Source: Eledone cirrhosa
Lineage: Eukaryota
NCBI GenBank assembly: GCA_964016885.1
Contig: OZ024750.1
Coordinates: forward strand, 19,220,001-19,284,000
Reading direction: 5' to 3'
DNA: 64,000 nucleotides
The notes beneath the pieces were generated by a model. It did not search any database. It saw only the letters and a list, made by a program, of their open reading frames with translations, and was not told the DNA's origin. The position numbers and the translations under genes are program-made. Within the stretch, counting starts at the first letter, position 1; every line of letters begins with the position of its first letter. This document shows positions 3,678 to 63,626 of the stretch, piece after piece.

Positions 3678-3728
<51 letters not shown>

Positions 3729-4628
3729 CAGAGAGAGACAGAGAGAGACTAGTAATGAGCCGGTACATTCTTATATATATAATGTTGACTTTAATATACA
3801 TGAACCTATTTAGCATAAATAAATTCAAAGAGATGGAATAAAAATGTCTAATCTTCTGAGAAATTCATATTTATAGTGATATAATAATTATTTCTACCTC
3901 CTCTCTGTAAATACTTCATAGGTGCGACATCGTTATAATAACAGATATTTGGGTAACATTCCTAAACGCACAGAATTAGGATGAACAGCGTTTCAACAAT
4001 AACCATCTATTTATGGAAGTTTAAGTTTGTATTGTCCATTGTATCTTTTGACAATAGGGTGTCATTTGCTGATGTCTTCTATGTCAATCAAGCAACCCTA
4101 CCTCATTTTAATACATGGACGACGGTTCTAGTTCTGATTATATTTTTATCCTTGTCGCTTCATACTTTAACCAGGACTGTGTATATCACGATAGTATTTT
4201 CTGATAGTCGCAGAGGTTAAGAAAATAGCTTAATGAGATTAATCATTCCTTCTCTCAACCTATGCATCTGACAAAGTTCATTACGTTTTCATCCGTCATG
4301 AGATGATGTGATTTATTTAATGAAGAATAACAAGTCTATTATACAAAAATATTATAGTGATTCATAGCTTCAGGATCCTTTCTCCTCACACAGTTGGGTT
4401 ACTAATTCCAAAACCTGAAAAGTGTCATGGGCATTGACATTTCATCTCTGACTAAAGAGTAAAAATGATTTGAAACTGTAAGAATTGTTGGAAGCCTTTG
4501 AGTTTCACCTCTAATTTGCGGATAGCTTCCTCCTTCACACTTCCATATACAAACCTCGGACATCCTGAAAATTATTACGGTCACTAAACTTCCCATCCGA
4601 CTAAAAATTAGAAAAGAATTTGAAATAA

Positions 4629-5019
4629 AATAATTGTTTCTACTTTTGGCACAAGGCCAGCAATTACCCAGTGCATTACTGGTACTTTATTTTATCGACC
4701 CCGTAAGGATGAAAGGCAAAATAAACCTCGGCGGGATTTGAACTCAGAATGGCAAGGACCGTAACTCTATGCGTCAAAGCATGGCGTCCGACCCCCTACC
4801 GATACTGCCAATCCACCGCCAATTTGTAATAAAATAATTGTTTCTACTTTAGGCACAAAGCCAGCAACTACCCAGTACATCACTGGTACTTTATTTTATC
4901 GACCCCGTAAGGATGAAAGGCAAAGTTACACTCGGCGGGATTTGAACTCGGACTGTAAAGGGACGTAACTATGCTAGAAAGCATGGCGTCCAACCCTCTA
5001 CCGATACTGCCAATTCACC
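4629..5019 (-). mobile_element. Two head-to-tail family A SINEs
   Basis: Reverse complement of the 2369-2757 unit, two copies. Confidence 0.9.
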
Positions 5020-5880: not shown

Positions 5881-6312
<432 letters not shown>

Positions 6313-7581: not shown

Positions 7582-8245
7582 TCAAGGTGGTTGAGTAATC
7601 GTAGGAATGTTAATCCAGTTAAAAAGTAGATGCGATTTCAGATGTGGACAACATCTAAAGATCTCGGTCTTAGAGTTGAGGCAAGTGGAAGGGGCTTTCA
7701 AGTTTTGGAGAATTCTAAATTTTTCCGAGGTGCACAAAGAACATTTCTTTGTGCCTCTTTAGTATTCGCTTGAATGGTCTAAAATAGACCAATCAATAGT
7801 ATACGGAATGTTTTTGTCTTTAAATTCCCACACTTTATTTGCCAGCGCCGTTGCAGTTCTTTTATCAGGGTGTTTAAAAGAAGCGATATGTGCATAATAT
7901 CTAGTTTTGAATCTGTCCTGAGTCATGCCAACATATCGTTCACTCCTGGCTGGCTGGTTATTAATCATCGGTGTCAATTTGACCTCATACACAATGGATT
8001 TGGTATTACATTTACCCTGTAATGGGTATTCTTCAGGCTTCTTGCAACTACATCCTGGATTCACTCTCGTACGCTTAGAATTGGTAATTTTAGTCTTCAT
8101 TGATGGGCAGCAAGGTAACTGATTTTGATTACATTTCTATTAAATATCTTATTATATCTATGATTAGGGAGAAAATGTCTGTCTAGGAGGTCGAGGCATT
8201 TTCTTCCTACATTAGTTTTAACAGTTATAGAGAAGAGGGGATGTA
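7582..8245 (-). pseudogene. Penelope-like retroelement C-terminal fragment (linker + GIY-YIG endonuclease), decayed
   Basis: Translates to PLFSITVKTNVGRKCLDLLDRHF..KIFNRNVIKISY, frameshift, then CSC..PLQGKC..IVY..YVGMT..FKTRY..H..SF..IDWSIL..Y*..CSLCTSEK..LNSKTEIFRCCPH; motifs typical of PLE endonucleases (Naiad/Neptune-like from memory); internal stop at 7759. Confidence 0.9.
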
Positions 8246-8504
8246 ACTACTATTTCTAACACTCCTAGTGACCTTTTGGCACCGCAAGGTTGAGTTTGGA
8301 GTGAGATTTCGCTGCTATTTCTCAAAGTATTAATGATCTTGAGGGACCGTTATATCATTAACAAATTAATTATGATTTTATTGATAGTTATATGTCGTTT
8401 AATGATATTTGATTTTTCTTTTCCAAAAACTAATTAAAATTAATTATTTTCAAACAATGGCTGCAATCGTAATCAATTTATTGAATTCTATTACAATTCC
8501 CACA

Positions 8505-11818: not shown

Positions 11819-12213
11819 GGCGGTAAATTGGCAGTATCGGTAGAGGGTTGGACGCCATGCTTTCTAGCACAGTTACGTCCCTTTACAGCCTGAGTTCAAA
11901 TCCAGCCGAGGTTAACTTTGCCTTTCATCCTTACGGGGTCGATAAAATAAAGTACCAGTAATGTACTGGATAATTGCTGGCCTTGTGCCTAAAGTAGAAA
12001 CAATTATATTGTATATATACAAGGTTGGTGAATTGGCAGTATCGGTAGAGGGTCAGACGCCATGCTTTCTAGCACAGTTACGTCCCTTTACAGTCTGAGT
12101 TCAAATCCAGCCGAGGTTAACTTTGCCTTTCATCCTTACAGAGTCGATAAAATAAAGTACCAGTAATGTACTGGGTAATTGCTGGCCTTGTGCCTAAAGT
12201 AGAAACAATTATT
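11819..12213 (+). mobile_element. Family A SINE dimer nested in the hAT element
   Basis: Two full copies; ATTATTGCAGAGG at both outer ends (11808-11820, 12208-12220). Confidence 0.9.
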
Positions 12214-12510: not shown

Positions 12511-13639
12511 AGAAAAGAAAATAGAATATCTTGAATATCTAATGTTTTTTATGCAGACGCAGAGCAGTCATACAATGTATTAGAATACAATGTATTAGAA
12601 TATATAATGTAAAAACATACCTTTAAACTTTCACGAAATTTTAGTTTCAATTTTACAATACAATTTTAGAAAAAGAATGCAGGTATTTAATAATAGGTAA
12701 TTATATAAAATATTTCCTGTATACATGTGATACCTCATGCAAATATTTAAACAAATAGAAAGATATTATAAGATGTGTATGTATATTCTCTCTCCTCATA
12801 TTCGTATATGTATATTGTATATATGCTTTGTCCAAATTACAAGTCAAACCTTATAATATTGTGATATTGTCTTATATAGGCTTATTCTGTGTCATTAATG
12901 TTTTATTTTGCCTTTACCTGTTGTGTTAATTTAAAAAAATAAAATCTTGTTTGATGGGGATGCCAAAACTAAATTTGCTTTTGATAGGGGATGCTGGGTA
13001 CCCCCTGGCATCACCTTGGCTATGGGCCTGTTACAACGCAATCCACCTACTACTAACTCAAATGACATATCTAGTACTTCGAATGTAAGCAGGCTAACAC
13101 GACTAGCGATATTAGGGTTAACCTTGATCTCTCCAGATGAAACTGCCCCTTTAGCCAATATAAACTATAACTGTAGGAAGTAGGACTCCTAATAATTGTC
13201 CTCCTGGCGGTTTATGCCTACCTAGCAATATAGTATATAAATGTACGGTAAAAACCCAGCACTTTAGTAATTCATATATCGGGGCCACAGGGGGCCCACA
13301 GCTAAATCTTCACTACGCCTCGCGGACAAGTTGACAAAACCGTTGACGCACACGAGAACAACCAGTAATACTCGCTACATCAGCCATTCCACTTCCTGTG
13401 GTTCCATCCAGAGACTTTATGCACCCTCATAATTTGATAAAGGAAAATGTCAGTCCGCGAACCAATTACAGATGAGTGGGGTCTGATGGCGATTGGTCAA
13501 TGTCTGATAATGAGTAAGCTTTTGCCTGGGTCTTTTTGCCGAAGTGATAAAGTTGGCACTTGCAAAACTGTCACAACATGAAGCAAATATAGAATAATTT
13601 TACATATTCAATCCCTTTTATTTTATTGTCGACCTCCTT

Positions 13640-16633: not shown

Positions 16634-17206
16634 GGGTGGTGAATTGGCAGTATCGGTAGAGGGCTGAACACCATGCTTTGCAGCATAGAGTTACATCCCT
16701 TTACGAACTGAGTTCAAATCCCGCCGAGGTTAACTTTGCCTTTCATCCTTACGGGGGTCGATAAAATAAAGTACCAGTAATACACTGGGGTAATTGCTGG
16801 CCTTGTGCCAAACGTAGAAACAATTATTTATTCAAGGCAGTATCGGTAGAGGGTCGGACGCCATGCTTTGAAGCATAGAGTTACGGCCCTTGCCATTCTG
16901 AGTTCAAATCCCGCCGAGATTAACTTTGCCTTTCATCCTTACGTGGTCGATAAAATAAAGTACCAGTAATACACTGGGGTAATTGCTGGCCTTGTGCCAA
17001 ACGTAGAAACAATTATTTATTCAAGGCAGTATCGGTAGAGGGTCGGACGCCATGCTTTGAAGCATAGAGTTACGGCCCTTGCCATTCTGAGTTCAAATCC
17101 CGCCGAGATTAACTTTGCCTTTCATCCTTACGTGGTCGATAAAATAAAGTACCAGTAATACACTGGGATAATTGCTGGCCTTATGCCAAAAGTAAAAACA
17201 ATTATT
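16634..17206 (+). mobile_element. Three head-to-tail family A SINEs
   Basis: Copies 2 and 3 nearly identical, 190-bp period, same 5' truncation. Confidence 0.92.
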
Positions 17207-17308
17207 TATTTAAAGTAATCCAACTTATTTTACTAACGGGATAAAAAAAAAATAATAAACCGTACGCAGTCCCGCACACCTTCCTTTATTATAGTTTAGA
17301 TCATTGCT

Positions 17309-19777: not shown

Positions 19778-19935
19778 TTTCTTCTATAGGTACAAGACCA
19801 GCAATTTTGAGGAAGGGGAAAGTCGATTAAATCGATCCCAGTGCGTGACTAGTGCTTTATTTTATCGACCCCGAAAGGATGAAAGGCAAAGTTAACCTCG
19901 GCAGGATTTGAACTCAGATTATAAAAGGCTGTAAG
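19778..19935 (-). mobile_element. Family A SINE, 5'-truncated
   Basis: TTTATCGACCCCGAAAGGATGAAAGGCAAAGTTAACCTCGGCAGGATTTGAACTC. Confidence 0.85.
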
Positions 19936-21076
19936 TTTATTGTATAGAAATGACGTCGACGTTCTAAATGTGTTTTCAATGTGTGCTATAATCTATATTT
20001 TATAACTACAGGCTTTACTGTTAAAATAAGGAAATTTCTCTTCTTTACAAAAGGAAAGGAGCTAGTTGTCAGAAATACTGCTTAAATACATATCTTTCAA
20101 ATGAGACATCTGTACAAAATCATGGATTACAGTGACAAACGCTTGTATAACATGAATGCTAGTCAGTAAGTACGTATCTGGTGAAAAGTCTAAGCAATAT
20201 GACCAGTAATTCCGTAAACTGCAGGTTTTACTTCAGAGTTTGCCACTCTTAGAAAAATACCGTAACAACAGCTCGAATTACGATTTCTGCATTCCCGCAC
20301 ATAAATGGGTTGTCAGGGTTGTCATAATTATGATTAAAGGGTCCCACCTACCCCGGTTTTAAAATCGGGGTGTCACTTTTCCTATACAGACCGCCATGAA
20401 AGGCTCATCATTTTTGTCTACACAGAGCAATCGGTTTTAAAGGATCAGTAATTCATTGCTTCATCACCTTGTCAGTTCCAAAAATCTCTACCACAGGTTG
20501 GCCAGGAACTGGTCTTGGGTTGTTAGGTCTATGAGAGACGTATAACGTTTGGGGCATTTTAGTAGAAAGTTGATTCTTAGGCCCATTCCCAACCCGACAA
20601 TAATAATCTTTCACAGAGACACACTAACACAGATACACATACAAACGCACACACACATACACACACAAACACACACGCACACACATATATATTTGCAAGT
20701 ACGTGTGTGTTTACGTTTGTGTTTATGTCTTATAGTTTACTAGCAAGACACCGGTTTAAAAACAAATAAAAATAAGTACAAGGTGGTGCCCAAGCAAGGC
20801 CGTCGTTTAATGACTGAAATCAGTCGAAGAATAAAGAAATAAAAGAATATCAGAAAATAATATATCATCGAATTGATGAACTTCTAAATAAATAAATATT
20901 TTCGAGAAAATGGAATTTTGAAGTATTTTCATTATTTCTTAATTCTAGTTATTCACTGGAATTCCTAAAATGTCTTGTCTTTTTGGCATTTGGTATTTAG
21001 AGAAATGTATTCAATTTAATTTATGCTTACGGCAGCAATTATATTTATCTTCCTAAACTCTTATATTTTGTAAATG

Positions 21077-21431: not shown

Positions 21432-21438
<7 letters not shown>

Positions 21439-21885
21439 GTTTGGAGTTGGAAGGCCAAGACAATGCAGGTATGGATATAGAATATAAATGCAAATGCAAA
21501 AAATATCGTTGACAATTAGTCTTTTACCTTAAATTTATTTAAATATCCTTAATTTTCGAGATAATATCTCTTCTTCGGAGGGAAGTAAAGGGGTTAATCC
21601 AGTGTTCTAATTAGCTTGCCAAGTCATGCTGACAGCATGACTTGGCAAGCATGACTTGGCAAGCTAATTAGAACACTGGATTAACCCCTTTACTTCCCCC
21701 CGAAGAAGAGATATTATCTCGAAAATTAAGGATATTTAAATAAATTTCAGGTAAAAGACTAATTGTCAACAATATCTTTTGCATTTGCATTTATATTCTA
21801 TATCCATACCTGCATTGTCTTGGCCTTCCAACTCCAAACGTTTATACCTCATTACGCAATGTTTCAAGTAAACTACAATTTCCTC

Positions 21886-21888: not shown

Positions 21889-21914
<26 letters not shown>

Positions 21915-21920
<6 letters not shown>

Positions 21921-22369
21921 ATTAAATAAATGGAAACTATATTTATAAAACCATATTTATTTCATTATATATATTTCAGGGATATCATACTAACAATATG
22001 CTATGCCTTCCTCAGACAAAATACAATATAAACAGTTTTATAGATAAATAGATTTGACATACCGTAACAACATCGACTTGTATTTGAAAAGTTGAATTGG
22101 CAGTTCAACTTTTCAAATACAAGTCGATGTTGTTACGGTATGTCAAATCTATTTATCTATAAAACTGTTTATATTGTATTTTGTCTGAGGAAGGCATAGC
22201 ATATTGTTAGTATGATATCCCTGAAATATATATAATGAAATAAATATGGTTTTATAAATATAGTTTCCATTTATTTAATATTGTAAATATACTCCAAATA
22301 CTTGTCGAGTGCTTTTATATCAGTTATAAATATTTACTAGTTGTAACCCAACAATTTAAATATAACTTT

Positions 22370-31809: not shown

Positions 31810-31866
31810 GTATATATGTATTTGCGTTTGTGTGTGTGTATATATATGACTATACGTATAAGCATA

Positions 31867-32530
<664 letters not shown>

Positions 32531-33434: not shown

Positions 33435-33625
33435 AGGGTCTTACTAGTTCCTATTACCCACTCTACTACCCTAAGTATTGAGTACTTGGTTCGTTATGGT
33501 CCACCTGGTTCCTTACCACATTTCCTTCGTTATCTAGCTCCTATCCCCGTAGTAGAGCACTTTCCGACCCTACCACGCCGTATCCAGACTTTTCCGCTAA
33601 GCTCAATTTCTTTCACCCGCACCAT
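33435..33625 (+). mobile_element. Family P1 fragment with extended tail, within (TA)n
   Basis: GGGTCTTACTAGTTCCTATTACCCACTCTACTAC...CCACATTTCCTTCGTTAT shared with 5990-6088. Confidence 0.8.
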
Positions 33626-33714: not shown

Positions 33715-35665
33715 CGCCCCCCCCCCATAAAACATATACGGACCTCACATAAAAAAACGGGGCACCCAAATAAAAAACGGGGCACCCAAATAAAAAACTG
33801 ACCCGCCCCCATAAAAAACGGGGCACCCAAATAAAAAACGCCCCCCCCCCCATAAAAAAACCGGGCACCCCCCAAAAAAACGGACCCCCATAAAAAACGG
33901 GGCACCCAAATAAAAAACGGGGCACCCAAATAAAAAACGGACCCCCCCATAAAAAAATGGGGCACCCAAATAAAAAACGGGGCATCCAAATAAGAAAACA
34001 ATTTTTAATGTTGGTGCCCCGTTTTTTATTTGGGTGCCCCGTTTTTTTATGGGGGGTCCGTTTTTTATTTGGGTGCCCAGTTTTTTATTTGGGTGCCCCG
34101 TTTTTTTATGGGAGGTCGGTTTTTTATTTGGGTGCCCCGTTTTTTTATGGGGGTTCCGTTTTTCATTTGGGTGCCCCGTTCTTTATTTGGGTGCCCCGTT
34201 TTTTATTTGGGTGCCCGTTTTTTTATGGGAGGTCGGTTTTTTATTTGGGTGCCCCGTTTTTTTATGGGGGTTCCGTTTTTCATTTGGGTGCCCCGTTCTT
34301 TATTTGGGTGCCCCGTTTTTTATTTGGGTGCCCGTTTTTTTTATGGTGGTTCCGTTTTTTATTTGGGTGCCCCGTTTTTTTATTTGGGTGCCCCGTTTTT
34401 TTATGGGGGGGGGGTCCGTTTTTTATTTGGGTGCCCCGTTTTTTTATAGGGGGGTCCCTTTTTTATTTGGGTGCCCCGTTCTTTTATGGGGGGGGGTCCG
34501 CTTTTTATTTGGGTGCCTCGTTTTTTCATGGGGGGGGGGGGGGGGGGGGCGTTTTTTATTTGGGTGCCCCGTTTTTTTATGGGGGGGCCGTTTTTTATTT
34601 GGGTGTCCCGTTTTTTAATGGGGGGTCCGTTTTTTATTTGGTTGCCCCGTTTTTTATGGGGGGGGGGGTCCGTTTTTTATTTGGGTGCCCCGTTTTTTAT
34701 TTGGGTGCGCCGTTTTTTATTTGGGTGCCCCGTTTTTTATTTGGGTGCCCCGCTTTTTTTATCGGGGGTCCGTCTTCTATTTGGGTGCCCCGTTTTTTAT
34801 TTGGGTGCCCCGCTTTTTTTTATCGGGGGTCCGTTTTCTATTTGGGTGCCCCGTTTTTTTATGGGGGGGGGTCCGTTTTTTATTTGGGTGCCCCGTTTTT
34901 TTATGGGGGGGGGGTCCGTTTTTTATTTGGTTGCCCCGTTTTTTTATGGCGGGGGTCCGTTTTTTATTTGGGTGCCCAGTTTTTTAATGGGGGGGGGGGT
35001 CCGTTTTTTATTTGGGTGCCCCTTTTTTTATTTGGGTGCCCCGTTTTTTTTATGGGGGGGCCGTTTTTTATTTGGGTGCCCCGTTTTTTTATGGGGGTGG
35101 TCCGTTTTTTATTTGGGTGCCCCGTTTTTGTATGGTGGGGGGCACCCAAATAAAAAACGGACCTCCTCCATAAAAAAACGGGGCACCCAAATAAAAAACG
35201 GACCCCGCCCATAAAAAAACGGGGCACCCAAATAAAAAACGGGGTACCCAAATAAAAAACGGACCCCCCCATAAAAAAACGGGGCACCCAAATAAAAAAC
35301 GGACCCCCCCCCCATAAAAAAACGGGGCACCCAAATAAAAAACGGACCCCCCCCATAAAAAAACGGGGCACCCAAATAAAAAACGGACCCCCCCATACAA
35401 AAACGGGGCACCCAAATAAAAAACGGGGCACCCAAATAAAAAACGGGGCACCCAAATAAAAAACGGACCCCCCCATAAAAAAACGGGGCACCCAAATAAA
35501 AAACGGACGCCCCCATAAAAAACGAGGCACCCAAATAAAAAACGGACCCCCCCATAAAAAAACAGGGCACCCAAATAAAAAACGGGGCACCCAAATAAAA
35601 AACGGACCCCCCCCATAAAAAAACGGGGCACCCAAATAAAAAACGGGGCACCCAAATAAAAAACG
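33715..35665. repeat. Satellite of two ~20-bp subunits (AAAAAACGGGGCACCCAAAT and AAAAAACGGACCCCCCCAT) in three blocks of alternating orientation
   Basis: A-rich 33715-33992, T-rich 34012-35138, A-rich 35139-35665. Confidence 0.97.
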
Positions 35666-37868: not shown

Positions 37869-38529
37869 ACTAGAGATTGATTAACATATAAATAAACATG
37901 AATAATCACAGGAGATAATTTTTACAAGTGTGTAACCACACATAGCTAGGTAGGTAACTAAATAAAGTTGACCAGAACTTCAAAAATAGATACCTTATAA
38001 TATGATTTATATAATATGATATATATAATATATATAATCAATTAAGTTAAAAATGTACATCTACATATGCATACTGAAATACTAGTGTGTATATGAATAC
38101 ACACATGTATACATATGCAGATGTAACAAGTCTTTCACTGGTTGCTTTACTGTGAGCAACTCAGCTATTCTGTATGTAAACACACAGACAAACCGGTTTT
38201 TAGAGTCATACTGGTTTTCGAGGAAACATCTTCCCTCTATTCTCCAGAAAGCCAGACAAGGAATATTGAACTAGTTTCGTTGTTGTTACAACTCATCAGC
38301 AATATTTACCTATCTACCGGCCTTTCTGGAGAATTGTAAAAGCACATATCGTTATATGCTTTTTCTATGAAAATTAGTAGTGGGCAGACTAATTTGCATA
38401 GAGTGTGAGTACGCACCGTTTGTGAGTACGCAACAATTTTAACTTAATTGTTTAAGCGTCAGTCATACAAAAGTGAGTTACAAACGAAACGAAATTTAAT
38501 TTCGTTTCGTTATTTGTTTTTAATATATA

Positions 38530-38604
<75 letters not shown>

Positions 38605-38660
38605 GTGATGCATTAAAACACAATTTATTAACATATTACAACAACTATATATATATATAT

Positions 38661-38858
38661 AGGTACGTTATTCCGGGTTGAATCGGAGGTAACCAAAGTA
38701 AGTAAGGTACTCAATACATTGCAGAGTATAAAAGTTTTCATATAGATGAGATTCTACAGGACTAGAACTGTTTCATTCTTTAGAAATCATCAGGAATCTC
38801 ATTTCTGATGATTTCTAAAGAATGAAACAGTTCTAGTCCTGTAGAATCTCATCTATAT
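38661..38858 (-). mobile_element. Fold-back element (family P2): 53-bp inverted arms with hammerhead, ~80-bp one-sided tail
   Basis: Arms 38741-38793 / 38805-38857; homologous copy at 63397-63567. Confidence 0.88.
38746..38802 (-). ncRNA. Type I hammerhead ribozyme with all three stems
   Basis: ATGAGATTC-CTGATGA-T-TTC-TAAA-GAA-T-GAAA-CAG-TTCTAGTC-CTG-TA-GAATCTCAT: 9-bp stem I, 3-bp stem II, 4-bp stem III, GUA triplet. Confidence 0.8.
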
Positions 38859-38959
38859 TAATATATATATATATATATATACATATATAGTTTTTGGAAT
38901 ATGTTAATAAATTGTGTTTTAATGCATCACTGATATATATATACCTATGTTTCATGAAA

Positions 38960-39019
<60 letters not shown>

Positions 39020-39279
39020 GCGTGCGTGTGTGTATGTATACGCGTATCTATCTATATATACATATAAATATAAATTAGCGAGAATCGTTTTCAGCTCAGG
39101 AATTAACGAAAATCAACGTCCGATATGTGTGGCAAGCGCTCGATGAATCATATGAATCAGAGCTACAACATACGTTAAGGGCCAAATACACTGAGATGAT
39201 GGTTAAACATATCATCCGCACAGCCAAAACAAAACGACCAAGTAATTCGGGTCAGACAATAAAAATATATGTGTTGATA

Positions 39280-39782
39280 CTTTCCCGGACCCTGGACTGA
39301 TGGTAAAATCCAGTATTGGTTTCTGCGACTCCAAATCAGGTACTGTCCGCCTACATAAAGAATGTTGGGCTTCTGGTGAGATGATGAACAAGGCAGTCGT
39401 GTTATCAACGGGTTTTGCTCCAAGATGCTATAGATAGTGTGGCTATTACTGACCCCTCGTGGGATTCAGCAGATATATATATGTTTGGTAAATATCATCT
39501 TGGTTAAGAGAGTGGGACTGGCTTTGTGCAGTGCCTTTGCTCACTATAAAAGCTTCATGGCACAGGCATTGCTTTATATCTGGAGATCTCTCTGCACTTG
39601 TCGTCACATGGTATCATGGGCCCAGCACTATGTATCAATAATTGTCACAAGTGTAGTGTTTGTACCAGAGTTTTCAAGACGCTGGCTGGACTAAAAAGTC
39701 ACACTCGTTCAGTGCATCGGTAGGGGTTCTCCTACATGGATATAAAGTAGTGGCCGTACTCGAAAACGAGTTAGCAGCCACC

Positions 39783-39784
<2 letters not shown>
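39280..39784 (+). mobile_element. Non-autonomous RTE-derived element: non-coding part fused to RTE zinc-finger C-terminus and 3' tail (5' boundary uncertain)
   Basis: 39622-39723 encodes ..[23 protein letters not shown], like RTE-BovB C-termini; tail TGGCCGTACTCGAAAACGAG; 39507-39572 homologous to reverse complement of 58530-58602. Confidence 0.65.
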
Positions 39785-39866
<82 letters not shown>

Positions 39867-45233: not shown

Positions 45234-45819
45234 TTCGTTTCTGAATTTGTTTAGCAAGATTCTTTATCTGAAATCGTGTGTTGAAACCGATATTGTTATG
45301 CTTTGGGAGGGTCATGTTGCCAATAAGAAACACACGCACCAGTTGCTTTCACTTCAATTTATTATATATTTATAAATTTATAAATTTACAAATCTACAAA
45401 CTTATAAATTATAAATTTCTGGTTGGTTGGTTGGTTCCACAACCAGATAGTTGTTTATATATATAGTCATAGTCCTTTCGTCACACACTCTGTGACCTCT
45501 TCAGTGACTGGGGATTCCTTTCTTCGTTTCTGTGCCTTTTCACACACAGAAACAAAATGGCGTAGGATAGAAGAAAGAAAAGGCACAGAAACGAAGAAGG
45601 AATCCCCAGTCACTGAAGAGGTCACAGAGTGTGTGACGAAAGGACTATCACTATATATATAAACAACTATCTGGTTGTGGAACCAACCAACCAACCAGAA
45701 ATTTATAATTTATAAGTTTGTAGATTTGTAAATTTATAAATTTATAAATATATAATAAATTGAAGTGAAAGCAACTGGTGCGTGTGTTTCTTATTGGCAA
45801 CATTACCCTCCCAAAGTAT

Positions 45820-45827
<8 letters not shown>
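45233..45827. mobile_element. Fold-back element: ~250-bp inverted arms with hammerhead, 35-bp spacer, ~57-bp one-sided tail, within (TA)n
   Basis: Arms 45290-45541 / 45577-45827 with few mismatches; terminus TATTGTTAT..TTGGGAGGGTCAT recurs near 26434. Confidence 0.9.
45465..45509 (-). ncRNA. Minimal type I hammerhead ribozyme (mirror copy 45608-45652 on +)
   Basis: AGTCA-CTGAAGA-G-GTCACA-GAGTG-TGTGAC-GAAA-G-GA-C-TA-TGACT: 5-bp stem I, 6-bp stem II, 2-bp stem III, CUA triplet. Confidence 0.8.
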
Positions 45828-45868
<41 letters not shown>

Positions 45869-45964
45869 AATAAAGATTCAGCGGGAATCGCATTTTCGCC
45901 GGGCAGGAAAAGCGAAGCGAAGCGAAACGCAAAAATCAGAAATGATATATATGTATGTATATGT

Positions 45965-46139
45965 AAAAGTAAGAAATCGGAGAACAGACCTTTAATACAT
46001 GTTTATTTAAAACAGCACCTACGTACGTTTCGCCCGGATGGGATTTATCAAGGGCATAAACCCCATCCGGGCGAAACGTACGTAGGTGCTGTTTTAAATA
46101 AACATGTATTAAAGGTCTGTTCTCCGATTTCTTACTTTT
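45965..46139. mobile_element. Fold-back element: 84-bp inverted arms with decayed hammerhead core
   Basis: Arms 45965-46048 / 46056-46139; CCC-ATCC-GGG-C-GAAAC-GTAC-GTA-GG, preceded on - strand by CC-TTGATAA (CTGATGA-like). Confidence 0.8.
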
Positions 46140-46335
46140 CCACGTGCTTACGCTCTGCTAACTCTCTCGCCCACTAAATATTAACACTTCTAATATTTAA
46201 TACTGCCGGCACTAGTATTGAGCACCTTTTGCATACGCTATTTGGCAAATAACTACATGTATCACCTATCCCTCCTTTTTTTTCTCTCTCTCGATACGTA
46301 AATACTCTATGTATGTATATGTATGTATATATATT

Positions 46336-46547: not shown

Positions 46548-46548
<1 letters not shown>

Positions 46549-46733
46549 CATGTATGACCCGACGGCAGAGCTCAAGCCGTTTCAACGGCTATTTCTAGAA
46601 ATAGCCGTCGAAATGGCTTGAGCTCTGGTGTCGGCGTCATACTTGTTCTTATTACCCACTCTACTACCATAAATATTGAGTACTTTGGTGCGTTATGGTC
46701 CATCTGATTCCTTACCACAATTCCTTCGTTATA
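46548..46733 (+). mobile_element. Family P1 fold-back copy, loopless palindrome plus tail, within (TA)n
   Basis: Centre GGCTATTTCT|AGAAATAGCC at 46596/46597; tail as in 6010-6088. Confidence 0.85.
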
Positions 46734-46835
46734 TATATGATGTCAATCTGTGATGTCAATCTGTTATTTTTATCTAAAGACATTTTTCCAATTCCAACAC
46801 GCCCGTCCCTTCAATCTATCTTATTTCTCATTCTT

Positions 46836-46870
46836 TCTTCTGATGAACGACTAGCGTCCGAAACGTTAAC
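46836..46870 (+). ncRNA. Minimal hammerhead-like motif
   Basis: CTGATGA-AC-GAC-TAGC-GTC-C-GAAACGTT with palindromic AACGTT; weak stem I. Confidence 0.5.
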
Positions 46871-46981
46871 ACCCTCTTCCTGCTGTTTCAAGTGTTAACC
46901 TAATATATTCCTTCCAACCGTACCGATTGTGTTGTTATTTCTGTTTACCTTTTGCACACACACGCGCACACACACACACGT

Positions 46982-47827: not shown

Positions 47828-47963
47828 GGCGCTACACTGTCGCTCGATTTGGTAGAAATAGCAACGATATCTTGCTGGAATCATACTCTAACGTATTCAA
47901 TAAAGAAGGATATATAAATATACACATATATCACCATCATCTAGTCGAGCTTGCTCGGACAAA

Positions 47964-47998
<35 letters not shown>

Positions 47999-48162
47999 AT
48001 ATATATATATATATCATCATCATCATTTTGTCCGAGCAAGCTCGACTAGATGATGGTGATATATGTGTATATTTATATATCCTTCTTTATTGAATACGTT
48101 AGAGTATGATTCCAGCAAGATATCGTTGCTATTTCTACCAAATCGAGCGATAGTGTAGCGCC
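47828..48162. repeat. Inverted duplication of host DNA centred on (ATG)n(AT)n(CAT)n
   Basis: About 135-bp unique arms, one mismatch seen. Confidence 0.95.
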
Positions 48163-48344
48163 ATAAGGAACAAGGTGGACCATAAAGCACCAGAGTACTC
48201 GATACTTAGGATAGTAGAGTGGGTAATAGGAAAAGAGTCAGGACTCCGACGGCTGCTGGGCTCCGGTATTGCATACTAGTGGTTTAGTTCGGATCTAGCT
48301 GTCGAAACGGGCCGGAGCTCAGCCGTCGGGGTCCTGACTATTTT

Positions 48345-48350
<6 letters not shown>
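48163..48350 (-). mobile_element. Family P1 fold-back variant
   Basis: ATAGGAAAAGAGTCAGGACTCCGACGGCTG / CAGCCGTCGGGGTCCTGACTATTTTCCTAT arms; tail is reverse complement of the 6010-6072 type. Confidence 0.8.
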
Positions 48351-50280: not shown

Positions 50281-50420
50281 TTTATGTAGATCCTGGGTAA
50301 GATTGGACTCCACACCAGGATCTCCACCGTCTCTAACACCTACCACTAGGCCAACGAGGGGTCCTGACTATTTTCCTATATATATACATATATATAATAT
50401 AGATATATATACATATATGT

Positions 50421-51742: not shown

Positions 51743-53215
<1,473 letters not shown>

Positions 53216-57100: not shown

Positions 57101-57745
57101 TGTCGACGTGTCCTCCAGTACGGGAATTACCACCACAAACGTCTGCAGAATGTTATAAACACTAGGCTACTCACCTTTATTTTGTGGATTGTTGAACAAG
57201 GGAAAAAGTAGTTCGTGACATTAACGTGCATGTAGCTGAGAATTTCACAGACACGTGTATACTTAAGATATTTCACATAAAGATTCAGCGTGATAAGACT
57301 GGCCCTTTACATTATAGGTATGAGTGGAATCACGTAAAATAAAGAGTCTTGCTCAAGGTTAGAACAAGCCGCCGGGTAAAGAATACCCTACGTTGCCGAA
57401 GAAGTATTTCATAAATAAAAAACAATGCCACAAGCAAGGATAATTTAAATATTGATAGGACCAAATCATTTTTGTTCATAGCTTAGTGGATTGCAGCTAC
57501 GTGAAATGAAGTGCCATCCAGTATGAGATTAGAGAACACAACCTTACGATCACAACTGTCATCACTTGGCTATGCGATTTTACCTAATTTACTTATAACA
57601 ACAAACGCTGATTTGTTTTCTCTTGAGAAGCTGACATGCGACACGGTCTACAGTGTATAGTATAAATACTATAGGCTATAGACTATAGTAAGTGTATACT
57701 TCATACACAACGGTTCAATGCTCTATAATTGCAAACAAAACAGTT

Positions 57746-58081
57746 GGTGAGAATATTCCGACGAAAGCGTTTTGTGATTTGTAAATTCCGTACGGTCATT
57801 TAATGATTTTCTGATTTTTGTTTTTGCCTGGTAAACTCAAAATTACAAAGAGTATATTGACTATCTCAGTGAGTAACCTAACAGCTGCTACTATTCGTTT
57901 CCTGAAGATTAAAAACAAATAATGTCCCAGTTGATATTAATATTGTTTTAACTTCAAAGTGGATATCTACAGACGAAATAATTAAGATAATGAATCCGCT
58001 GGGAAATTTTTTCCTACTATGTAGACAAATTGAAAACAACTAAATTACTTCTAGTTTTCATTTTGTATCAAACGTATATAT

Positions 58082-58133
<52 letters not shown>

Positions 58134-58469
58134 ATATATACGTTTGATACAAAATGAAAACTAGAAGTAATTTAGTTGTTTTCAATTTGTCTACATAGTA
58201 GGAAAAATTTCCCAGCGGATTCATTATCTTAATTATTTCGTCTGTAGATATCCACTTTGAAGTTAAAACAATATTAATATCAACTGGGACATTATTTGTT
58301 TTTAATCTTCAGGAAACGAATAGTAGCAGCTGTTAGGTTACTCACTGAGATAGTCAATATACTCTTTGTAATTTTGAGTTTACCAGGCAAAAACAAAAAT
58401 CAGAAAATCATTAAATGACCGTACGGAATTTACAAATCACAAAACGCTTTCGTCGGAATACTTCTCACC
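57746..58469. repeat. Inverted duplication of ~330 bp host DNA centred on (TA)n
   Basis: Arms identical except about two 1-nt indels; centre near 58108. Confidence 0.96.
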
Positions 58470-58803
58470 GTTATCGAGTATGGCCATTGCACGATATAAC
58501 ATTATTAATAATTATTAATTAATTCTATCGTGCAATGCTTGTGCGCGAAGATATTTTTTTAAAATGAGGAAAGACTGTGCACTGAGCCAATCCCACTCTC
58601 TGAGCGACAGTAGCTATAACCCGAAAAGAAGAAAAGATCAACATCATCGGTAACTACTGAGCCGCAGGTTTTATATCGGAATTATCCCAGTTTCCTGAGT
58701 TGCCTTCTAGAAGAATGCCCTGACAAAGGCTAGGGGTCCTTCACTGCCTGTGGTTTAACCGCGCGATCGGGTGTCCAGCCCGATTATTTCTATGTCGCCG
58801 CGC
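58470..58803 (-). mobile_element. Non-autonomous RTE-derived element related to 39280-39784
   Basis: Minus strand has AGAGAGTGGGATTGGCTCAGTGCACAG and ends TGGCCATACTCGATAAC. Confidence 0.6.
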
Positions 58804-58874
58804 ATATACATACACATGCACCCATGTATATACACATATACATACATATGTACATGTGTATATACATATTTACA

Positions 58875-61685: not shown

Positions 61686-62300
61686 GTCAATTACACTGTT
61701 ACTACAGGATATAGTTTCAATTTGTAATAATAAAAATTGAAATACTCTTATCGCTTTTACATATTATAGTATTATCGTTGTTTTTCAGAACCTCTAGAAC
61801 AAGTTGAGGATTCTTCTACCGCATGTTTTTGTTATGTTTTTATTTCTCTTTATTGGTTTCACATCTGAAGGAGCCTCGCTGTCTGCCGCGAATTGTTATT
61901 TTTCTTTTATCTGAAAGAGTCTCAAAGGACTGATAAAGTAATTCAAACTTTGTTTCGGTCATGTTTTCGTCTTACGTGGAAGTTAGTGTCAAAACTTAGA
62001 ATCTGAGCTAAGAGCGAAGAATAGAAACTGCAGACCAAAAATCAAACACACATGAAAGAAACTAAACTATGAAACTAGCAGTTAAAAAATGGTTAGAAAA
62101 CATTTTTGTGCGGTTATTTCTATTTTTGCTTTATATCTTTGTGTGTTTAATAATATTGTACAAAATAAGTTATTGTCAAAATTGTTCTACAAAACGCAAT
62201 TCGGATAAAATATCGGCTCGAGAAAATTTATTTTCGCCGTTCGATACAATGTAATTAAATGAAATTCGTACCACGAGCCATGTTATATATATACATATAT

Positions 62301-62410
<110 letters not shown>

Positions 62411-62430
62411 AAATTCGTACCACGAGCCAT

Positions 62431-62475
<45 letters not shown>

Positions 62476-62491
62476 TCGTACCACGAGCCAT

Positions 62492-62526
<35 letters not shown>

Positions 62527-63396: not shown

Positions 63397-63567
63397 TTTA
63401 ATATAGAAATTGCTTCTACAGGACTAGAACTGTTTCATTCAGGAGAAATCATTCTCCGAATGAAACAGTTCTAGAAGCCATTTTCTATATTAAAAAAATT
63501 ATACTCTGCTATGTATTGAGTACTTTACTTACTGTGGTTACTCTCGATTGAACCCGGGATAAACTTA
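63397..63567 (+). mobile_element. Family P2 fold-back copy within (TA)n
   Basis: CTAGAACTGTTTCATTC / GAATGAAACAGTTCTAG arms; tail is reverse complement of 38661-38735. Confidence 0.82.
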
Positions 63568-63568
63568 T

Positions 63569-63626
<58 letters not shown>

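Follow-up and report, generated by a model that had tools for sequence, protein, structure and literature searches.

The inverted duplication at positions 57746–58469 of the window, by which we mean the whole 64-kb stretch of AT-rich, microsatellite-laden animal DNA analyzed here, is best explained as the product of DNA-level fold-back repair, or of a replication template switch, at a (TA)n tract, an event that would have rejoined a pre-existing copy of an RTE-type retroelement. We hold this reading with about even confidence. Events of this class are already known, and the locus most likely records ordinary break repair, not the capture of retroelement RNA that the first-pass annotation of this DNA had proposed.

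Self-alignment resolved the 724 bp into two arms (57746–58107 and 58108–58469) with 361 matched columns, no mismatches, and 2 one-base gaps, which bears out the earlier description of a near-perfect TA-centered palindrome. At 58461, 9 nt inside the outer end, a C (G on the minus strand) has no partner in the other arm; the second gap is a homopolymer indel, a run of six T residues opposite one of five, near 58007; the upper 95% bound on arm divergence is 0.8%. The non-repeat parts of the arms (57746–58074 and 58141–58469) are 329 nt each, and the CATG interruption of the central microsatellite is mirrored on both sides of the palindrome center (Table 1). The locus thus combines an inverted copy of adjacent DNA, near-identical arms, and a self-complementary center, as a fold-back should. 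When the central (TA)n end was modeled as single-stranded DNA, the minimum free energy structure was folded on itself, with a z-score (−1.58) that is not exceptional. Two small hairpins lie just left of the palindrome at 57645–57712 (z −4.31) and could have stalled fold-back synthesis.

Table 1. Features of the palindrome, its junction, and the adjoining retroelement copy (window positions)
Feature	Positions	Strand	Remarks
Left arm	57746–58074	+	Proposed microhomology to the RTE tail is the first 8 nt (57746–57753)
Center	58075–58140		(TA)5 CATG (TA)19 CATG (TA)5, self-complementary; proposed site of break and fold-back
Right arm	58141–58460	−	0 substitutions relative to left arm; one T-run indel
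Shared zone	58461–58469	−	Last 9 nt of RTE tail and outer palindrome end, as proposed; base 58461 missing from left arm
RTE-type 3' terminal motif	58470–58484	−	15/18 to 39750–39767 over the 18-mer 58470–58487; no microsatellite tail
12-bp perfect stem	58485–58537	−	58537–58526 with 58485–58496; links 5'-UTR piece to 3' piece; AT-rich loop
Conserved RTE 5'-UTR domain	58532–58601	−	73% over 71 nt to 39507–39572
Presumed upstream part of RTE copy	58602–58803	−	Bounded on its 5' side solely by the microsatellite at 58804
Degenerate TA/CA microsatellite, right flank	58804–58870		Starts with a low-complexity 8-mer that the central tract also contains

The arm had also been called unique, a description that stood as a statement about the 64-kb window, in which sensitive blastn found no second copy of the 329-nt sequence (best other match 30 nt, E 0.008). 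The arm had no match in Rfam or among plasmids and phages, a scan of prokaryotic genomes for arm copies returned 0, the right-arm frames gave nothing of note against Pfam, and tblastn with P0010 and P0003 found no remnant of a Penelope ORF. A coding origin was considered and rejected, the 56-aa frame in the arm having matched only unnamed hypothetical clusters in Atlas. The arm carries CTGAAGA at 57902 ahead of a long stem in a three-way fold; a hammerhead at this site was rejected as well, with CAAA in place of GAAA, the cleavage triplet absent, a z-score of −2.1, and no Rfam match.

On sequence likeness, the minus strand of 58461–58803 most likely carries a non-autonomous RTE derivative of the bipartite kind already described, made up of a 5'-UTR piece, a stem pairing the 5' and 3' pieces, and a 3' motif, with its 3' end toward the palindrome. 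None of 1000 shuffles aligned as well as the 5'-UTR domain did to its counterpart at 39507–39572. The same domain agrees with positions 411–501 (5'-UTR) of RTE-1_MD, as printed in the supplement of PMC5786205, a count by eye giving ∼48 matches in 57 aligned columns, and the 3' terminal motif resembles, also by eye, the 3' ends printed there for IdioSINE2 and RTE-1_PSi. (The IdioSINE2 3' end is labeled unknown in that supplement, and the main text suggests RTE.) These resemblances support the RTE identity and the polarity that had been assigned to the neighbor. The bipartite derivatives WALLSI, MAR4, and IdioSINE2, as given in PMC5786205, have the same domain closely before a like 3' motif; in contrast to them, 58461–58803 has neither a microsatellite tail nor a demonstrable target duplication, and its upstream 200 nt are unmatched. 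The low-complexity 8-mer common to the right-flank microsatellite and the central tract is possibly a target duplication.

The upstream segment (58602–58803) had no significant match to 39200–39506 (101 of 1000 shuffles scored as well) and no family in Rfam, and the fold of 58660–58803 was ordinary (z −0.28). A proposal that this segment encodes a reverse transcriptase thumb was dropped after the 5'-UTR match was found. We also withdrew a description of the copy as an old relic, which had been based on its stop codons and AT-rich hairpin, since bipartite elements can do without an ORF and the hairpin is shared across the family.

A second bipartite RTE derivative lies at 39200–39785 on the plus strand and consists of the 5'-UTR domain, a C2H2-like coding end, and a tail, followed by (TA)n. 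Its frame matched the Pfam C2H2 family at E 1.5e-4, which is sub-threshold, and had no protein homologues among 84 near-length candidates or 55 longer proteins; a large HMMER search with this frame returned only 6 zinc-finger proteins. Protein searches classified neither RTE copy, 11 other frames gave nothing of note against Pfam, and no stray copies of the RTE domain were found in prokaryotic genomes.

The first-pass annotation had the RTE-type 3' terminus begin at once after 58469. The match itself stood: allowing up to 4 mismatches, 39750–39767 is the only other site in the window for the 18-mer at 58470–58487. The boundary did not, since the alignment of the tail to 39739–39779 runs beyond 58470 and stops at 58461, inside the right arm, so that the outer 9 nt of that arm may be retroelement. 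This extension is weak, with 1590 of 20,000 random 15-mers scoring as well (p 0.08), and its stop coincides with the sole non-homopolymer difference between the arms. From the alignment, the RTE tail probably runs 9 nt into the palindrome, which gives 8 nt of microhomology to the palindrome's left end; in the kilobase to the left of the TA tract this 8-mer is found just once, at 57746. If the tail does reach 58461, then the body of the element is complete and its microsatellite tail alone is missing; no such tail follows the 3' motif directly, the arm coming at once, and we read this as loss at the junction that left a 3'-clipped RTE copy. The retention of base 58461 would mean that the element strand persisted in the product, which fits a DNA and not an RNA template. 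This argument assumes a bulged annealing, and a later indel or a consensus error would undo it.

In the event that we propose, the starting allele would have consisted of a flank (A), a (TA)n tract, and a minus-oriented bipartite RTE copy with its 3' end at the repeat, as is seen at 39.78 kb. The (TA)n tract would have broken or stalled a replication fork, and the left 3' end, its TA run being self-complementary, would have annealed to itself and served as the primer for ∼320–330 nt of synthesis back into A. The new strand, once displaced, would have paired with the DNA end on the right by way of the 8 matching nucleotides in the RTE tail, leaving a single base bulged. The microsatellite tail of the element would have been lost at rejoining, to leave the product A-(TA)n-A'-RTE. 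Under this order of events the left arm (57746–58074) would be the original flank and the right arm the new inverted copy, an assignment deduced from the RTE tail that adjoins the latter. Local copying predicts mirroring and is thus supported by the mirrored interruption of the TA tract.

Such an event has precedents. Breaks in yeast yield fold-back duplications of 2 to ∼150 bp (PMC11724301), and structure-specific nucleases are reported to cut AT/TA repeats (PMC12972899). The yeast events described in PMC11724301 likewise consist of a short inverted copy of the flank, priming at inverted microhomology, and a join to the other end; they differ in that most are 5–34 bp and followed an induced break, whereas the event considered here is ∼320 bp, would have been primed by (TA)n, and was seen in an animal assembly. 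The small inverted triplications described in PMC13334657 and 10.1101/2025.01.14.632981 likewise involve template switching over 100–300 bp, short homology at the junctions, and enrichment at AT-rich palindromes, but they contain three copies, whereas 57746–58469 contains two and has its return junction in the neighboring retroelement. Several observations run against DNA fold-back. The arm, at 320 nt, exceeds the lengths of the yeast events, and the model does not predict an exact 3-nt direct repeat (GTT) that is present at both palindrome edges (527 of 20,000 by chance, or 2.6%). The weakness of the tail extension on which the microhomology depends, and the lack of any microhomology at a similar junction near 47.8 kb, count against it as well.

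The palindrome at 47.8 kb has the same TA-centered geometry, as the first-pass annotation had noted, with arms (47828–47977 and 48013–48162) identical at 149 of 150 positions. Beyond it lies the 3' end of a family of which the window contains three further copies, and the element at the junction ends 17 nt short of the end of the 5.9-kb copy. Its hammerhead-like pattern and head-to-head repeat suggest that this neighbor is Penelope-like and so of a different class from the RTE. We found no microhomology at its junction, and the palindrome there lacks a 3-nt edge repeat. With 2 mismatches in 30–32 nt, the inverted repeat of the element itself is slightly more diverged than the palindrome, which has 1 in 150 (Fisher p 0.08), a difference that we counted in favor of DNA fold-back.

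Inverted duplications with non-repeat arms were centered on 5 of the 117 TA tracts in the window, as compared with 2 of 524 random tract pairs. Two of the five (47828 and 57746) have their distal ends at a retroelement 3' end, and the other three (31863, 32227, and 38600) end in microsatellite without a retroelement. Of 51 merged TA loci, 12 have a recognized retroelement 3' end no more than 150 nt away (11 of 50 when the 47997 case is left out), so that the duplications show no excess over this background (p 0.30 for two of five, p 0.21 for two of four) in a count that is rough and partly circular, its probes having come from the window itself and two of its five events lying in one microsatellite complex. 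These results suggest that RNA capture is not needed to account for the class. Two regions (31863–32528 and 52735–53200) contain short non-repeat segments in forward-inverted-forward order inside long TA tracts, with arms matching at 118/121, 44/44, and 50/50; judged by this layout, which at 31.9–32.5 kb has the form reported for small inverted triplications in the studies cited above, they may be either such triplications or artefacts. At 38600–38935, a 51-nt inverted duplication (48/51) surrounds a Penelope-like hairpin element in the central TA.

The principal alternative, which we consider unlikely, is a single event coupled to retrotransposition: fold-back would have started at a nick or break in (TA)n, and once the flank had been copied, the reverse transcriptase would have jumped to the 3' end of an RTE-derived RNA and copied it in turn. 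The polarity of the neighbor fits this scheme at both the 47.8-kb and the 58-kb loci, and the RTE copy, whose non-repeat sequence seems to be intact to the final base and whose 12-bp stem is still perfect, could be young. SINE motifs and the likeness of the tail to a pygmy-squid SINE suggest a cephalopod host, probably an octopus; if so, it is relevant that RTE and Penelope-like families with recent activity have been reported in Octopus vulgaris (PMC13282606). L1 insertions with an inverted target duplication have been documented, one of them TA/AT-primed (10.1101/2024.12.14.628481), and four such L1 cases with duplications of 52–220 bp are described in PMC10191854. These L1 cases likewise place a retroelement beside a fold-back copy of its flank. 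However, in them the duplication lies at the reciprocal end or 5' side of an insertion shown to be new, whereas here it abuts the 3' end of an element whose tail repeat is missing, and simultaneity is only presumed by RNA capture. Retention of base 58461 argues, under the assumption given above, for a DNA partner, retroelement ends are not enriched over the background of TA loci, and two unrelated enzymes would need to have given the same product.

The first-pass annotation took the two cases to suggest a general route of capture by TA fold-back ends. In its boldest form, the primer end of a retrotransposition or repair intermediate in a (TA)n-rich genome would fold back, copy hundreds of bases of flank, and then jump to the 3' end of any available retroelement RNA regardless of class (RTE here, Penelope-like at 47.8 kb), which is in our estimate likewise improbable. 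The retained base, the occurrence of retroelement 3' ends beside ∼11 of 50 other TA loci, and the three duplications of five that lack a retroelement left the capture of RNA and a general route unsupported. No TA-centered duplications ending at retroelement 3' ends, and no palindromes in octopus genomes, were found in the literature, a search whose coverage excluded most subscription journals. If RNA was captured, break repair at TA repeats would be linked to the insertion of unrelated element classes, and by a class-independent route new insertions of any class could gain a heritable palindrome on their 3' side, opposite to the L1 cases found. If the palindromes are real, long (TA)n tracts are fold-back sites that make palindromes of their flanks, and the density, 5 of 117 tracts in 64 kb, is high. 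This would matter for structural variation and for the quality of assemblies of animal genomes rich in microsatellites, but the mechanism is already known.

That the palindrome arose in library preparation, sequencing, or assembly, when a polymerase or pore switched strands at a TA hairpin and returned at a microhomology, strikes us as rather improbable. The absence of substitutions between the arms, the homopolymer indel as one difference, and the near identity of every TA-centered duplication examined, some of them zig-zag, are as an artefact would predict, and in Aspergillus flavus inverted triplications were reported to be ∼30-fold commoner in nanopore than in PacBio data (10.1101/2025.01.14.632981). 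We had looked to older, diverged duplications as an argument against an artefact, and this argument failed: direct alignment gave 118/121, 44/44, 48/51, and 50/50, and all six aligned TA-centered duplications have arms at least 94% identical, so that the class offers no clearly old example to show an in vivo origin. An artefact would, however, require two switches in one molecule and survival in the consensus, the return site in the RTE tail makes biological sense, and near-perfect head-to-head palindromes with hammerhead-like motifs and 1–3% divergence (21432, 21909, 45290, and 38737) were assembled elsewhere in the window.

These head-to-head palindromes, which have TA on the outside, lie at 21432–21846, 21909–22291, 38737–38861, 45290–45827, and 63397–63494; our own pattern scan found hammerhead-like motifs in both arms of the first four. 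In arrangement they fit typical Penelope-like inverted ends. The inverted pLTR structures described for Penelope-like elements (10.1101/2021.04.23.441226; PMC3846280) are likewise near-perfect palindromes tied to (TA)n and, as inverted 5'-truncated copies with (TA)n targeting, account for the head-to-head palindromes of the window. In contrast, 57746–58469 is centered on TA and carries no intact hammerhead or ORF. A match to the Rfam HH9 hammerhead at 38246–38317 (minus strand; E 3e-6, 38.6 bits) is under the gathering score of 52. A broken RT-GIY-YIG ORF on the minus strand at 7624–8246, 40–50% identical to P0010 (E 3e-38) and with a C-terminal GIY-YIG region, places the Penelope-like class in the window, and a weak second remnant is found at 13182–13295 on the plus strand (E 0.027). 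A dispersed short family (5924–6087, 33440–33530, 46548–46950, 48163–48346, and 50358–50379) has a terminal hairpin and a ∼75-nt extension that ends at TA, in a layout related to those of 38662–38861 and 63397–63570; its members are probably non-autonomous Penelope-like ends.

Penelope-like activity enters a further explanation, in which the whole of 57746–58803 came from elsewhere as a donor block: a read-through RNA containing the RTE, the arm, and TA would have primed itself at its (TA)n 3' end to give a tail-to-tail copy, with the left arm as a truncated copy. Penelope elements are predicted to form tail-to-tail repeats when self-priming occurs on a sense template (PMC3846280), the remnant at 7624–8246 lies in the same window, and the arm contributes both its CTGAAGA before a long stem and a TA end similar to the 21432 family. 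We give this explanation only a slim chance, as the arm has neither a hammerhead core nor a Penelope ORF remnant, no target duplication surrounds 57746–58803, and the stop of the copy at the RTE tail is left unexplained. Slimmer still is the prospect of a DNA transposon, either a MITE or a foldback element, that is palindromic over its full length, has GG...CC termini, and landed at the end of a truncated RTE copy, the GTT edge repeat being its 3-bp target duplication. Excising such an element would leave the RTE cut exactly where the insertion occurred and its tail absent beyond; the palindrome at 47.8 kb shows no repeat of this kind, and the 64-kb window, a weak test given the large genome, holds no second copy.

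The stem within the RTE copy is of interest apart from the palindrome. At 58 kb it consists of 12 Watson-Crick pairs (fold z −3.31), and its counterpart at 39 kb (39567–39752, plus strand) has 16 pairs, 12 of them Watson-Crick, that enclose ∼155 nt including the C2H2 codons; the two stems differ in sequence. Complementarity of the same kind was seen by eye in the sequences printed in the supplement of PMC5786205 for the autonomous RTE-1_PSi (∼177–185 with 3726–3734), WALLSI1, and IdioSINE2, so that the pattern is based on two copies in the window and three printed sequences. Neither "stem" nor "hairpin" occurs in the main text of that paper, which calls the tendency of RTEs to form bipartite derivatives unexplained, and we found no literature on such a stem. 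A stem between the two UTRs may explain how RTEs shed their middles and so offers a testable reason for bipartite derivatives.

A screen of 119 of the 129 listed ORFs against Pfam, which left out ten ORFs in the satellite at 33.7–35.8 kb, gave no match at the cut-off that would indicate a host gene. That satellite (33752–35665) is a GC-rich 20-bp repeat whose orientation switches at ∼34000 and ∼35140, and it thus forms large inverted arrays. A hairpin with 87-nt arms (85 of 87 identical) and a 7-nt loop, and no TA center, is present at 45962–46142. Tandem arrays of a SINE-like unit of 189–205 bp occupy 2356–2765, 11822–12212, and 16646–17210, with inverted copies of the unit at 4629–5019 and 19784–19940. 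At 62259–62500, a 21-nt non-repeat segment occurs three times in direct orientation between TA tracts.
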